Source of the DNA: Desulfatiglandales bacterium
GTDB taxonomy: Bacteria > Desulfobacterota > DSM-4660 > Desulfatiglandales > Desulfatiglandaceae
Assembly: GCA_963662465.1 (NCBI GenBank)
Contig: OY759599.1
Location: 7,872,001-7,936,000 of the forward strand
Reading direction: 5' to 3'
DNA length: 64,000 nt
Every line of letters starts with the position of its first letter. The first letter of the stretch is position 1. Made by a program: the position numbers and the translations under genes. The notes below the pieces were generated by a model that made no database searches, was not told the origin of the DNA, and worked only from the letters and a program-made list of their open reading frames with translations. This document shows, piece by piece, positions 34,352-38,620 of this stretch.

Positions 34352-34556
34352 GTCCCCGCATCTTTCCAGTTTTCCTCTTGTATTCCATGCGCATAAAATC
34401 CCCCAGTACCCCATGAAATCCGGCGAAGGCTGGCGTAGTTCTTAGAACTTCATCCTGCGGCCAAAAATCCTTATGCCAGTACTCAAAGCGGGACTGGAAA
34501 CGAAATCCATTTCACAGGTGCCCTCTTTTAAATAATCAAAAAGTCAAATGACCAAA

Positions 34557-35400
34557 TCATCCATCGTTTTGGGAACGCACCGCAAAGGCCCGAAAGTTGT
34601 AGACGTCGTTGCGGGTGCCCCACCCGCCGCCGTAGCCGAAGTATAAGTACCTGGTGATAGAGGAATCTTCAGTTCCACTTGACCACACATACCGACCAGT
34701 GGTCTTCAAAAGAGGCGCCATGTTCTGATCCTCAAGCCCTTTCTCATGGATGTCTTCCAGTTCATTCAATGTAGGCATACGCCAACCGCCGCCTCCTGTG
34801 TTTCTTAATTTGTTCACCCAGGACTTTGCCTGCTTCCACGTCGTGTCCTTGTCCGGTCCAGCTATCCACTCAAGACCTGTTTTCGTATCCTTCACTATGT
34901 TGTTCCCGGCAGAAATATCATGCCCTTGTGTCTGCCCTGAATCGACTGGCGACGCGGTGGGCGATTTCCCATTCTCAAGCCTAAACTCGACTTCCTGAAA
35001 TTTGTCAGGGGTCAGTTCAACTTCCTTTCGGGAACGCACCGCAAACGCTCGGCGGTAGCTGGAGGCGTTGCGGTAGCCCGAGATGTAGTGCCATTCCCTG
35101 CTGCCGAGGGGGAAGTAGAAGGCCCTGGCCGTATAGGAGCCATCAGTTTCACCCGACCATACATGCCAACCAGTGGTCTTCAAGAGAGGCGTCATGTTCT
35201 GATCCTCAAGCCCCTTCTCATAGATACCTTCCAGTTCATCCATGGTAGGCATTCGCCAGCCGCCGCCTGTTTTCAGGTCGGCCACCCATGATTTCGCCTT
35301 ATCCCAGGTCGTATCCTTGTCCGGCCCCGCTATCCACTCAAGACCGGTTTTCGTATCCTTTACGATGTTATTCCCTATAGCTGCATAACGTTCGTCGATG
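34557..35400 (-). CDS. Two tandem DUF1566 (Lcl C-terminal, CLec-fold) domains; out-of-frame 3' part of the kinase gene; probable DGR target
   Basis: Twice: IVKDTKTGLEW..PDKDTTW..AKSWV..L..GGGWRMPT..EL..I...VWS...RAFAVRS; the frame is open upstream of 35285 to IDERYAAIG (about 35400). Confidence 0.85.
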
Positions 35401-37792
35401 CCTCTTCCGGAATGCTGACGACATTGATCCTGCCCTGGTTTTTTATCAGTTGGAACCCTTCATTTAGAATGCTTCCCGGCAAAATCTGAATCTCTTTTTC
35501 GACATCGATATACGAATCGAGTTTAAGTGTAATAGTTTGTTTTCCAGGTCCAATCTTTAGTTTGACGTTCGTCTTAAAGTTTGACATCTTGCCATTAACC
35601 CAGATAGTGGCACACTGTGGAAGGCTATTCAGATTGAGGTGGCAAGGAATGGGTTTGAGCGATTCATCGAGTTTTACCTCTTGATCCAAATTTACGGCCA
35701 CGTCCCCTGAAACCTCTTGATGATTATCCGCCTCAAACCTGTATTTATGGGTTCCTGCCGTTACATCCGCCACGGTCAGCGGCGGTTTGCCCATCAGTTT
35801 CCCATCAAGATAGAAACGGGCAGGATAGGCATCAGAGAAAGTCTTGGCGCTTACATTGATGCTGCCGGTCTGATGCTCCAGAATAACATGGATACGGTTC
35901 TCTTCATCAGGGATGATTCTTTCAATCCGACTCACGGGGAAAAAGCCGTTCATCTTCAGACGAATAGTCTTTTTACCAGCGCCCACACGATCTATTGTTA
36001 GCGGAGTTGCGCCTCGTTCAATCCCATCCACAAGAACGGTTGCCATCTCCGGTTCCGATGTGATAACCAGGGTTCCGACACCTTTCTCTTCTCCGGTTTT
36101 CAAGGCAGTCCCCGAAGTGGCCGAAATAACGCGATCACCTTTATCTTTACTCAGACCAAGACGAGAACGAAAATCCTTCTCCAGGAATTCGCTTTCACTC
36201 GAATCAAGCCCGAGTTCTTGTGACTTTGCGGTGAGGGTTGTGCGCACATTTTCCGGTAATTTACCATCCGGGGCAAAGGCGTACGCAAACTCAAGGGCTG
36301 TCAGAAATTGATCACCGGGCATAGGCCCGGACGGAGCGGCTTGGAGTATCTCAACTGCCGCTTGCTCGGGCGAAAAGAGATCTAACAAGGTGGAGATATC
36401 GGCTAATCTCTGGTCTACCTCAATTCTTGTGGCCTTATTCAAGAGATCATCGATCTTGCTTGCCGTGTCTTTTCCGAGCCCCTGAACGTACCGCTCAATA
36501 GGCTCCAGGTCGTGAAAACCGATCAGTCGCCCTGTCAAAATTCGATAAATCATCACACCGAGGGAAAAGACATCAGCCCGCCGGTCCGTCTCTTTGAATC
36601 CCCCGCGCTGTTCAGGAGCGCCGTAGTATTGGGTGGCTAAATTTGTACCGGTTACAGTTTCAAATGCCTTTGATAGCAAATTCGCCCTGCCGGTCTCTCG
36701 GGCCAGACCAAAATCTCCAATATATGGGCGGTCGTCTTTGTCTAAAAGAATGTTGGCGGGCTTGAGATCCCGATGGATGATGGACTCCGATCGATTATGA
36801 AGCCAATGGATCGATGTCAGAATTCCGCTAATGATCGGGAAGGCCCTGTCATAGCTGAGATATCCGCCTCTCCCAGTTTGCAATAGTTCGTCATCAGATC
36901 CGATCAGACTGGAGAGGTTTTTGGGGTAATAATCCATGGTAAGGTAGGGCTTTCCCCGCCATGTCTTGGTATGGCGTGCGTTGACAATTCCGGGAACGCC
37001 TTCCGTGGAGAGCCGGAGCATAATGCCTGCTTCGCGCCGGAATCTTTCCTTGAGTTCGGAAAGAGAAAGGCCCGATTCACGGACTAAATTAGGCTGCGGG
37101 GAAAAGATTTTTATGGCCGCCTGAAACGAAACCCCTTTTGGCGATGCTAAAAAGACCGAAGCAAATCCACCACTGCCAAGCCTGCGTTCAATAACGTAAT
37201 TGTCGAATTCCTGGAGGTTGTCCGGTAGGACATAAGACCGTTCCTGGGCCGCCTGGTAGTCTGAATGCATCGTTTGAGGAAGTCGACCGCCAGAACGACG
37301 CAACTCCTCCACCAACATAACAAACTCATCGGCGTTGTCCTCCAGGTCCATCTCCTTGAGCCGCCCAATGATCCCCTCATGCTTTTCCTTTTGAGCATTT
37401 TCCCTCAACTTCTGAAAACGTCCCTGATATTCTTTATAGAGCCCTTCTGCCTCCGGTCTTGTCTTTCCGGAATAGACTCCTTCCTTCAACCCCTCGTCAA
37501 TGGAATCCAGTATCCCTTCGATAAGGCTGTAGTTTGGCCCGTCAAAAGGCGTACTCATGAGTGTGGTCCGATGTTCGGTCAGGCGCTTTTGGTGGAATTC
37601 TTCCATATATGCATCATGACGATCCTTGATCACAGCCAAGGCCTTACCGGTCTCTTGGCGGTTATCAAGGGCATCTTTTAGGCAATTGACAGCCCCTTCA
37701 AGATCATGAGACTCGTAAAGCTGCCGGGCCTTGTCAACAGCCGAGGCCTGCCCGGTTGAGAACACCCCCTTCATACGATTAAGAAAGCCCAT
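35375..37792 (-). CDS. Ser/Thr protein kinase with N-terminal helical (TPR-like) region and PEGA repeats
   Basis: LGSGGFASVF, AIKIF, HRDLKPANILL, DFGLA, YGAPEQ, DVFSLG; PEGA units GTLVITSEPEMATVLVDG..GATPL. Confidence 0.92.
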   Translation of the reverse strand: MGFLNRMKGVFSTGQASAVDKARQLYESHDLEGAVNCLKDALDNRQETGKALAVIKDRHDAYMEEFHQKRLTEHRTTLMSTPFDGPNYSLIEGILDSIDEGLKEGVYSGKTRPEAEGLYKEYQGRFQKLRENAQKEKHEGIIGRLKEMDLEDNADEFVMLVEELRRSGGRLPQTMHSDYQAAQERSYVLPDNLQEFDNYVIERRLGSGGFASVFLASPKGVSFQAAIKIFSPQPNLVRESGLSLSELKERFRREAGIMLRLSTEGVPGIVNARHTKTWRGKPYLTMDYYPKNLSSLIGSDDELLQTGRGGYLSYDRAFPIISGILTSIHWLHNRSESIIHRDLKPANILLDKDDRPYIGDFGLARETGRANLLSKAFETVTGTNLATQYYGAPEQRGGFKETDRRADVFSLGVMIYRILTGRLIGFHDLEPIERYVQGLGKDTASKIDDLLNKATRIEVDQRLADISTLLDLFSPEQAAVEILQAAPSGPMPGDQFLTALEFAYAFAPDGKLPENVRTTLTAKSQELGLDSSESEFLEKDFRSRLGLSKDKGDRVISATSGTALKTGEEKGVGTLVITSEPEMATVLVDGIERGATPLTIDRVGAGKKTIRLKMNGFFPVSRIERIIPDEENRIHVILEHQTGSINVSAKTFSDAYPARFYLDGKLMGKPPLTVADVTAGTHKYRFEADNHQEVSGDVAVNLDQEVKLDESLKPIPCHLNLNSLPQCATIWVNGKMSNFKTNVKLKIGPGKQTITLKLDSYIDVEKEIQILPGSILNEGFQLIKNQGRINVVSIPEEASTNVMQL

Positions 37793-37834: not shown

Positions 37835-38620
37835 TTACACCGGAAAGGCCCACCATTCAACAAAAAGATATCCAACAGATAAGAAAGCGAGCCCGAATCC
37901 GAGCTGGATCAGAATATATACGGTCTTGTTCTCCCTTGAACGAAGGTTATAGAAAACGCTACGGTTGAGAAACCGGATGACACCCAGCATGACCAGCAAA
38001 GAAAGGAAACCAATCCCTCCTTTCCACCAACCTGAAACAAGCCTTTCCCTAACCAGCGGCCATTCCCATCCATTAATGCTGTTCTGGGCGTGAATCGCGG
38101 TGGCCGTTTCGGCATCCCAAAGCGCTGCCTGAATCACGGTTTCATTTCCGTTCAGCCAGTATGTCCCGGTGAGGAAATACCTCGCCCCCAGGACCCTTCC
38201 CACCGCAGCCGCAGTCTCTTCATTAATCATGAAATCGGTTTCACGTTTTTTCATGTCATAGAATTTGTCCATGTCGCGCATCACATACATGAACTTGTTC
38301 GACCTGTCCATTGCCATGCCCAATTGTTTCTGAAGGCGTATGCCGAAAGGAAGGACTTCTTTGGTCCCCTCTTCCCTGAAAAGGTACACTGCAACCGTTT
38401 GCCGGTCGCCGAGCGCCCAGGGGATTTTCCGGTACTCCTTCCCCCCGGGTTCCTTGAACACAAACCGCCATACCGCCTTGCTATCCAATTCCGTGACCAC
38501 TTGTTCCGCCAGCTGCTGGAGAACATCTGTGGCCTCCGGATAGACGTCCGCAAAGGCGGTGCTTGAAGCCAGAAGCGCTATATACACCAGAAAAATAAAA
38601 AAGGTTTGTTTTGTAATCAC
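37835..38620 (-). CDS. Exported FlgO/CsgG-like domain protein with two C-terminal TM helices
   Basis: Signal peptide; INEETAAAVGRVLGARYFLTG..IQAALWDAETA; hydrophobic C-terminus. Confidence 0.65.
   Translation of the reverse strand: MITKQTFFIFLVYIALLASSTAFADVYPEATDVLQQLAEQVVTELDSKAVWRFVFKEPGGKEYRKIPWALGDRQTVAVYLFREEGTKEVLPFGIRLQKQLGMAMDRSNKFMYVMRDMDKFYDMKKRETDFMINEETAAAVGRVLGARYFLTGTYWLNGNETVIQAALWDAETATAIHAQNSINGWEWPLVRERLVSGWWKGGIGFLSLLVMLGVIRFLNRSVFYNLRSRENKTVYILIQLGFGLAFLSVGYLFVEWWAFPV

Follow-up and report, generated by a model that had tools for sequence, protein, structure and literature searches.

The window examined here, a stretch of 64,000 nucleotides from a Desulfatiglandales bacterium (GenBank assembly GCA_963662465.1, contig OY759599.1, positions 7,872,001 to 7,936,000), carries at 34557-37792 a gene of the Ser/Thr kinase-PEGA-DUF1566 type whose two DUF1566 domains bear at their tips variable regions (VRs) of the kind written by diversity-generating retroelements (DGRs). 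The gene is rearranged and broken in frame, and we consider it likely that the two VRs were written by template repeats (TRs) that have since been lost and that they are probably no longer diversified. A preliminary description of this DNA had taken the locus to be a single kinase-PEGA protein with two VRs and a remote target diversified in trans; the pattern is probably that of an orphaned target in a broken paralog, presumably frozen, rather than that of a demonstrated remote target. The features that carry this reading are as follows.

35375-37792, minus strand: Ser/Thr kinase-PEGA open reading frame (ORF), 805 amino acids, ending at a TAG codon at 35375-35377 (ORF list, Pfam)
35380-35391, minus strand: out-of-frame rearrangement junction, where ..SIPEEAS abuts the (E)RYAAIGNN linker of the first DUF1566 domain
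35025-35375, minus strand: DUF1566/Lcl_C domain 1 (Pfam), in the -1 frame relative to the kinase
35052-35123, minus strand: VR1, putative relic variable region, 20 of 24 codons NNC, 4 codons longer than the family template
35030-35045, minus strand: conserved 16-mer TTTGCGGTGCGTTCCC at the end of VR1, running into a coding linker with no 3' element behind it
34968-35024, minus strand: displaced C-terminal half of the split PEGA domain, EVELTPDKFQEVEFRLENG, between the two DUF1566 domains
34560-34907, minus strand: DUF1566/Lcl_C domain 2 (Pfam), with the stop codon TGA at 34557-34559 behind it
34596-34649, minus strand: VR2, putative relic variable region, 15 of 18 codons NNC, one codon shorter than the family template
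34571-34586, minus strand: conserved 16-mer at the end of VR2 (exact search of the genome)
34518-34565, minus strand: conserved 3' element across the stop codon with TTTGRTYATTT direct repeats, its homology ending ..AAAAGAGGGCAC

Our recount of codons ending in C agrees with the 20 of 24 and 15 of 18 given in the preliminary description, against 8.7 of 24 (VR1) and 6.7 of 19 (VR2) expected from the amino acids and the codon use of the genome. The simulated p value of this excess is below 5e-6 for VR1 and about 8e-5 for VR2, for which the simulation took 19 codons, 15 of them C-ending; codon use was derived from long ORFs, with an overall share of C at third codon positions (C3) of 0.30. The adjacent frameworks are not C-rich, as had been described, and with 18 of 84 and 16 of 86 C-ending codons they lie below expectation. 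The position of both stretches at the C-terminal end of a DUF1566/Lcl_C domain, together with their NNC codons, is that predicted for VRs of the CLec type. In DNA the two frameworks share 81% identity, with different codons at 19 of 57 identical residues, and to call them highly similar was an overstatement. The identical 16-nt block behind both stretches is indeed present and has exactly five copies in the genome, each at the end of a DUF1566 domain of the same subfamily, which is the outcome of the listing of 16-mer-ending DUF1566 genes that had been proposed. Homologous copies at 1603964, 1172020, 1171564 and 2363352 carry one to three mismatches to it, and there is a 3' fragment at 1052963. 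The latter, an isolated piece with the 16-mer at two mismatches and a ..GAAACGATGGATAATTCG tail, is a deletion remnant and not a TR because its upstream sequence is unrelated. In intact cassettes, the 16-mer block sits in the 3' end of the TR/VR homology.

The DGR origin of both stretches is well supported: avd stubs follow paralogous copies, intact cassettes of the matching type exist elsewhere, and the differences from the TR of one such cassette are focused on adenines. In what follows, G000 denotes this genome, other G0xx labels the genomes of relatives, Lxxx labels compared loci, and X1-X5 sequencing runs. An intact paralog of the window's gene in G000 is followed by an avd stub of 44 amino acids (487396-487527), and the copy at 1171564 by one of about 30 amino acids (1171360-1171446). 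In a same-genus relative (G003, L052), 60 avd codons are followed by a gene pair inserted on the opposite strand, and in another (G073, L055) a truncated avd is followed by a remnant of the C-terminus of the reverse transcriptase (RT). The inserted pair (L052:2152-2864, G003:C61) consists of two small overlapping ORFs that cut the DGR remnant behind a caspase-DUF1566 gene and, judged by eye, resemble a HEPN/nucleotidyltransferase toxin-antitoxin pair; the caspase-DUF1566 target gene of this locus itself has a frameshift in a G-run.

With the avd stub as query, a search of one genome per species gave 231 pattern matches, of which 101 were confirmed relatives. Among the best 80 of these 101, intact cassettes of the matching type were found at L072 (TR ..SSSAWNFNFNNGNENWNNRNNSNNKRAFAVRS), L067, L069, L070, L074 and L075, with the endings ..RVFGVRS (L067, L069, L075), ..RVFVVRS (L074) and ..RALPVRS (L070), and many other loci among the same 80 are of the YWSSTT..VRxVRGG type. 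Two further loci of the same cassette type, L146 and L147, were found by a metagenome scan with a TR-like pattern; neither is cognate to the window's stretches. The L147 cassette is complete: its target is of the caspase-like/DUF1566 kind, the 3' repeats and the hairpin are in place, its avd is complete and begins like the avd stubs, its TR, GSSDAWNFNFNNGNRNWNNRDNSNNKRAFAVRS, reads ..AWNFNFNNGNRNWNNRDNSNNKRAFAVRS, and its RT has the IGNLTSQ motif. Its TR differs from its own VR at 15-16 adenines and one other base within the homology. Aligned with neutral scoring to the TR of L147, VR1 departs from it at 20 of 31 adenines and at 12 of 74 other positions (Fisher p 3e-6); for VR2 the counts are 17 of 29 adenines and 13 of 74 other positions (p 8e-5). 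The classing of the two stretches as DGR-type VRs is thus borne out, and the family of the template that had been predicted for them (AAC TTC AAC .. GGC AAC .. CGG GCN TTT GCG GTG CGT TCC) exists in L072 and L147. Of the adenine-specific mismatches between VR and TR that had been put forward, the preference for adenines stands, whereas strict specificity does not, given indels and about 17% of non-adenine changes. Relative to the L147 TR, VR1 carries a 12-nt insertion and VR2 a 3-nt deletion, and because their lengths differ one template could not have written both; a single TR for the two stretches, one 4 codons longer and the other 1 codon shorter than the family template, was therefore rejected.

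That the C-ending codons reflect amino-acid composition, a local bias in codon use or selection acting on a binding loop that evolves fast, with no DGR history at all, we regard as barely credible. The binding loops of paralogs do often diverge fastest, and Tyr, Gly, Ser and Asn are frequent in the stretches, but the excess of C survives conditioning on the amino acids, the intact cassettes template the same loop with AAC codons, the differences from the template are focused on adenines, and avd stubs and DGR 3' elements lie behind paralogous copies.

The locus most likely represents a paralog in decay, its intact counterpart being the gene at 483943-487305 of G000, a single ORF of 1117 amino acids with a Pkinase domain, four PEGA stretches and two Lcl_C domains, which displays the ancestral single-ORF layout. 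In the window copy, this uninterrupted frame is absent. Pfam matches in the span 34557-37792 are Pkinase, PEGA and two Lcl_C (DUF1566) stretches, the last in agreement with the two DUF1566 domains described earlier. The Pkinase match (PF00069) scores 105.6 bits over residues 199-425 of the kinase ORF (about 36518-37198) and is followed by the PEGA repeats; the catalytic-loop HRDLKPAN and DFG motifs visible in its translation mark it as a putative Hanks-type kinase. The DUF1566 pair lies in a frame shifted by -1 that is open at 34557-35459, for 300 codons, and whose first ATG, GTG or TTG is a GTG at 35285, within domain 1. Because of the stop codon at 35375-35377 and the -1 change of frame at 35380-35391, the span is not one protein, and the single kinase-PEGA protein with two VRs of the preliminary description is split. 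The ..SIPEEAS side of the junction is the last PEGA domain's N-terminal half. Compared with the paralog, the window copy lacks about 57 codons of this domain, and the C-terminal half, EVELTPDKFQEVEFRL, is found between the two DUF1566 domains instead of in its place in the last PEGA domain. The kinase parts of the two genes are 61% identical in amino acids over 798 aligned positions and 66% in DNA, whereas the first DUF1566 domains are 83% identical in DNA, and because of this difference the comparison points to an exchange of the lectin module. The Lcl_C scores of the window's domains, about 50 bits against about 130 bits for the targets of a DGR of this genome at 404 kb, place them in a divergent subfamily. 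An assembly error behind the frameshift was rejected as far as contigs allow, 34400-35600 being spanned with 0 differences and 0 gaps by one contig each from X1 and X2, both of which may be the assembly's own data; a run of six A near the junction is reproduced without a gap in a contig of the metatranscriptome X4. The annotation label that fits the locus should be a split kinase/DUF1566 pseudogene-like paralog with orphan DGR variable regions.

What lies 3' of the two VRs also differs from an intact cassette. In several copies of this subfamily, both in this genome and in other genera, the DNA is conserved past the stop codon, with TTTGRTYATTT repeats and then a GC-rich inverted repeat, and in intact cassettes the 3' repeats are followed by a GC-rich hairpin and then by avd. 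The hairpins are strong in the intact cassettes L072 (-15.1 kcal/mol, z -3.25) and L067 (-11.3, z -6.4) and also in L052 of G003 (-12.6, z -3.3). The G000 copies at 487 kb (z -1.2) and 1171 kb (z +0.3) lack a strong hairpin, and the window copy has a z of -1.4 and no homologous stem. Behind the window's VR2 there is no homologous hairpin or avd stub; homology stops 40 nt past the stop codon, with no avd, TR or RT remnant behind the window copy. Of the 3' recognition element, that is the homology end plus hairpin, VR1 has nothing and VR2 keeps the 16-mer and repeats only. Target recognition in the Mtd system of Bordetella phage BPP-1 reportedly involves the initiation of mutagenic homing (IMH) sequence and a downstream hairpin/cruciform (Guo et al. 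2011). The intact cassettes are like BPP-1 in that their VR/TR homology has a GC-rich end and a strong hairpin comes after it, and unlike it in that this cassette family adds two to four TTTGRTYATTT direct repeats between stop codon and hairpin; compared with a BPP-1-like element, the window locus has kept its repeats and lost its hairpin.

The assembly consists of one contig of 8,161,625 bases with a completeness of 100, and no cognate TR for either stretch was found in it. A blastn-short search of the whole genome with both stretches, the check that had been suggested, returned only self-matches and paralogous domains, and no A-rich copy of the 16-mer with up to 3 mismatches was found genome-wide. 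A degenerate search, in which each non-A base of a VR could be itself or A (45-nt windows every 5 nt, up to 3 substitutions), gave self-hits only in 16 of 16 windows of VR1 and 14 of 14 of VR2. A scan for in-frame AAC/AAT-rich sequence found four TR-like stretches (404218, 1134275, 3605002(-) and 2625081(-)), none of the window's type. As a positive control, inverse searches that started from these four TRs found every one of their VRs, and the mismatches within the homology were almost all at adenines.

TR 404243: VRs at 403337 and 407842, a full remote VR at 591989 and a partial one at 7189313 (inverse search)
TR 1134296: remote VR at 7469359, 6.3 Mb away (inverse search)
TR 3605002, minus strand: VRs at 3601459 and 3605763 (inverse search)
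TR 2625081, minus strand: VR at 2626232 (inverse search)

Because this control recovers local and remote VRs alike, the genome runs DGRs with remote targets and the method detects them. The TR at 1134296-1134420, of the FGE-sulfatase type and just past an RT of 344 amino acids, has a true remote target at 7469359, with 23 of 29 differences at TR adenines; the VR of TR 404243 at 7189313 is a truncated remnant. TR 404243 was itself rejected as the window's template, being of the YWSSTT..VRAVRGG type with its own VRs at 403337, 407842, 591989 and 7189313. The DGR-type RTs of the genome lie at 404243-406006 (with IGNLTSQ) and 1133259-1134290, with a broken one at 3601754-3603223, which has stops within it, and a fragment at 2625096-2625410; each adjoins a TR of another type, and the best is 52% identical to an RT of the window's cassette type. 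The claim of a remote target diversified in trans is thus not upheld, there being no cognate TR in a complete genome in which the control recovers the VRs of four other TRs.

Among relatives, this DUF1566 subfamily is present in 9 of 10 same-genus genomes. A search of the 10 same-genus and of 104 same-family genomes, many of them incomplete, for the TR core (24 nt, at most 2 mismatches) gave two matches only, both of them TRs of the other type. Short matches confined to the C-terminal end (G016:C160, G003:C61 and G005:C304) were rejected as TRs, as they are truncated or frameshifted genes and not A-rich templates. The L147 TR has no match among 72,556 plasmid or 50,697 phage records.

Comparison of assembled Logan contigs from X1-X4 adds signs of stasis. 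VR1 is identical in X1, X2 and X3, of which X3 is another sample from this organism; in the environmental RNA library X4 (a metatranscriptome), one contig departs from it at 1 position in 246 nt. A tip may also persist over longer times: the older copy at 3628744, in which the NNC scar is much reduced (11 of 24 codons), is 92.5% identical in DNA and gapless to an orthologue in G010 (L023), with the same variable-loop protein up to just before the terminal block, and the pair shows that such DUF1566 tips can persist unchanged across species.

These data bear on the possibility that the window's gene is an active remote DGR target whose TR and RT sit on a strain-variable island, plasmid or phage absent from the assembly, which we hold to be quite unlikely. 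In its favour, targeting in trans does occur in this genome, as the remote VRs at 591989 and 7469359 match the TRs at 404243 and 1134296; the NNC scar equals that of an active VR in strength; the direct repeats 3' of VR2 are intact; and in Thiohalocapsa, the parts of the published account used here describe incomplete-looking loci that had structural variants with intact RT and TR (PMC10907252). Against it stand a complete one-contig genome with no cognate TR and no RT above 52% identity to the window's cassette type, the absence of the TR core from the 114 relatives' genomes searched and of matches to the L147 TR from the plasmid and phage records, the lost hairpin of VR2 and the lack of any 3' element at VR1, the unequal lengths that call for two templates, and a VR1 that is unchanged, or nearly so, in contigs of three samples.

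Several points speak against a frozen target whose templates are lost. The scar is very fresh: among nine copies in the genome the window's two stretches have the highest C3 share (20 of 24 and 18 of 24, the others ranging from 9 to 18 of 24), and that of the active VR in L147, 16 of 21, is no higher. Because this share is the highest while the frameworks have diverged at a third of synonymous codons, the last rewriting would be recent, so that its age is no argument against an existing template. The compared TRs come from other organisms, and the 16-18% of non-adenine differences could mean a diverged cognate TR and not decay; the incompleteness of many of the 114 relatives' genomes limits what the absence of the TR core there can say. 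VR2 is covered by contigs of X1 and X2 only, possibly the source of the assembly, and assembled contigs hide rare variants and structural variants that bear a TR. Lastly, RNA-library contigs overlap parts of the locus, which may thus be transcribed.

The last of these points touches another alternative. The kinase frame contains a slippery heptamer, which lies 8 codons past the opening of the DUF1566 frame and about 20 codons before the kinase stop.

35438-35444, minus strand: A_AAA_AAC heptamer in the kinase frame, at which a -1 slip would read into the DUF1566 frame

The gene could on this basis be a working full-length sensor, in which a -1 slip fuses the kinase-PEGA part to the DUF1566 pair and the tips serve as fixed receptors. 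Besides the heptamer, whose -1 slip yields an uninterrupted fusion, the 300 codons over which the DUF1566 frame has stayed open and the RNA-library contigs on both sides of the junction are consistent with this. On the other hand, a heptamer by chance in an A-rich overlap of 84 nt has, by a rough estimate, a probability of 5-10%, half of a PEGA domain, the N-terminal one, would be translated in the wrong frame in the fusion, and the intact paralog needs no slip and has no A_AAA_AAC heptamer at the matching place. We therefore regard such a sensor as unlikely, and the heptamer at this place is probably a coincidence. A combination of the two alternatives, in which an AWNFNFNNG..RAFAVRS-type TR with its RT on a missing strain-variable or extrachromosomal element still rewrites the tips in trans and serves at least eight orphan VRs, with the window copy made full-length by -1 slippage, seems very unlikely.

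The reading that we prefer, two VRs left behind by lost templates on a broken gene, can be cast as a sequence of events. An ancestral cassette, consisting of target, 3' repeats and hairpin, avd, TR and RT, would have diversified the last 20-30 codons of a DUF1566 domain by retrohoming, in which the TR is reverse-transcribed with mutations at its adenines and the product replaces the VR. The lectin module together with its 3' element may then have spread by duplication and recombination onto kinase, caspase and secreted sensor genes. Carriers of the module in this genome include Pkinase-PEGA-Lcl_C x2, Peptidase_C14-Lcl_C and short secreted forms, and also Pkinase-FGE-sulfatase-PEGA-Lcl_C followed by a secreted Lcl_C x2 protein. 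The avd-TR-RT parts were plausibly deleted at different points, leaving fixed tips, and in the window copy a later rearrangement in the last PEGA domain would have uncoupled the lectin domains from the kinase.

LdtA of Legionella is an example of the DUF1566/CLec class of DGRs. L072 and L147 are like that class, the one treated with Avd in a published survey (Wu et al. 2018, NAR, PMC5758913; in the part of it used here), in their order target-avd-TR-RT, their AAC-rich TR, the IGNLTSQ RT and the VR at the C-terminal end of DUF1566, whereas the window's domains end in RAFAVRS instead of VRxVRGG and have no cassette. Kinase-linked DGR targets of cyanobacteria (Vallota-Eastman et al. 2020, BMC Genomics, PMC7517822) are, in the portion of that study considered, likewise regulatory proteins of Ser/Thr-kinase type with a DGR-written ligand-binding end; the window's gene shares this build, no membrane span having been found in it, and differs from them in belonging to another lineage, in its DUF1566/Lcl_C domains with PEGA repeats, in the loss of its template and in its split ORF. 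The closest parallel in the literature used here is Thiohalocapsa sp. PB-PSB1, whose DGR loci include degenerate ones and trans targets (Dore et al. 2024, PNAS, PMC10907252). The sections of that paper drawn on describe a genome of about 8 Mb that holds several DGR loci, complete ones as well as ones whose machinery is missing or pseudogenised; remote targets that pair with a TR at another place in the genome; targets formed by C-terminal CLec-type domains on proteins of conflict or signalling type, with Pkinase and caspase-like domains among them; and duplicated target modules with shuffled domains (PMC10907252). According to the same sections, all but one of the incomplete loci are still diverse in nature (PMC10907252). 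The window's stretches differ in having no matching TR genome-wide, no variation in contigs and a broken target gene. Degenerate DGR loci are thus already known, and the window locus is one more such member.

Directly upstream of the kinase ORF lies a further gene.

37835-38620, minus strand: membrane protein of 261 amino acids, with no Pfam match

The intact paralog has a copy of it immediately upstream (483467-483886 of G000), 71% identical over the first 140 residues, which suggests that membrane protein and kinase form a conserved two-gene module. The kinase itself shows no obvious transmembrane segment, as had been stated before: no 19-residue window is transmembrane-like, the maximum hydropathy being 1.46, within the kinase domain. 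Because the kinase lacks a membrane span and the membrane protein is conserved upstream, we conjecture that the ancestral protein was probably a cytoplasmic kinase sensor with a membrane partner.

As to the other retroelements of this genome, an in-frame TAG interrupts the avd of the 404-kb DGR near 403803 (403800-403805; ..IQSFKAF*HAS..), where the avd of the relative G072 (L058) reads on as ..IQSFKAFQHAS..; even the best-preserved DGR of the genome may thus be decaying. A PF00078 search of the genome gave 47 matches, mostly multi-copy RTs of other kinds. Most of the 47 fall into sets that share one score, such as 12 copies at 145.0 bits and 4 at 152.5 bits, and this suggests an expansion of mobile retroelements, group II introns for instance.

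On this evidence, a scar of NNC codons is not enough by itself to recognise a live DGR target. Many freshly written VRs can remain in a complete genome after the matching class of template has been lost, while its other DGR classes still pair with their local and remote targets. The orphan tips on kinase, caspase and secreted DUF1566 proteins fit the published idea of DGR-written conflict and signalling sensors, and they form a natural series of 'frozen' receptors of differing ages.

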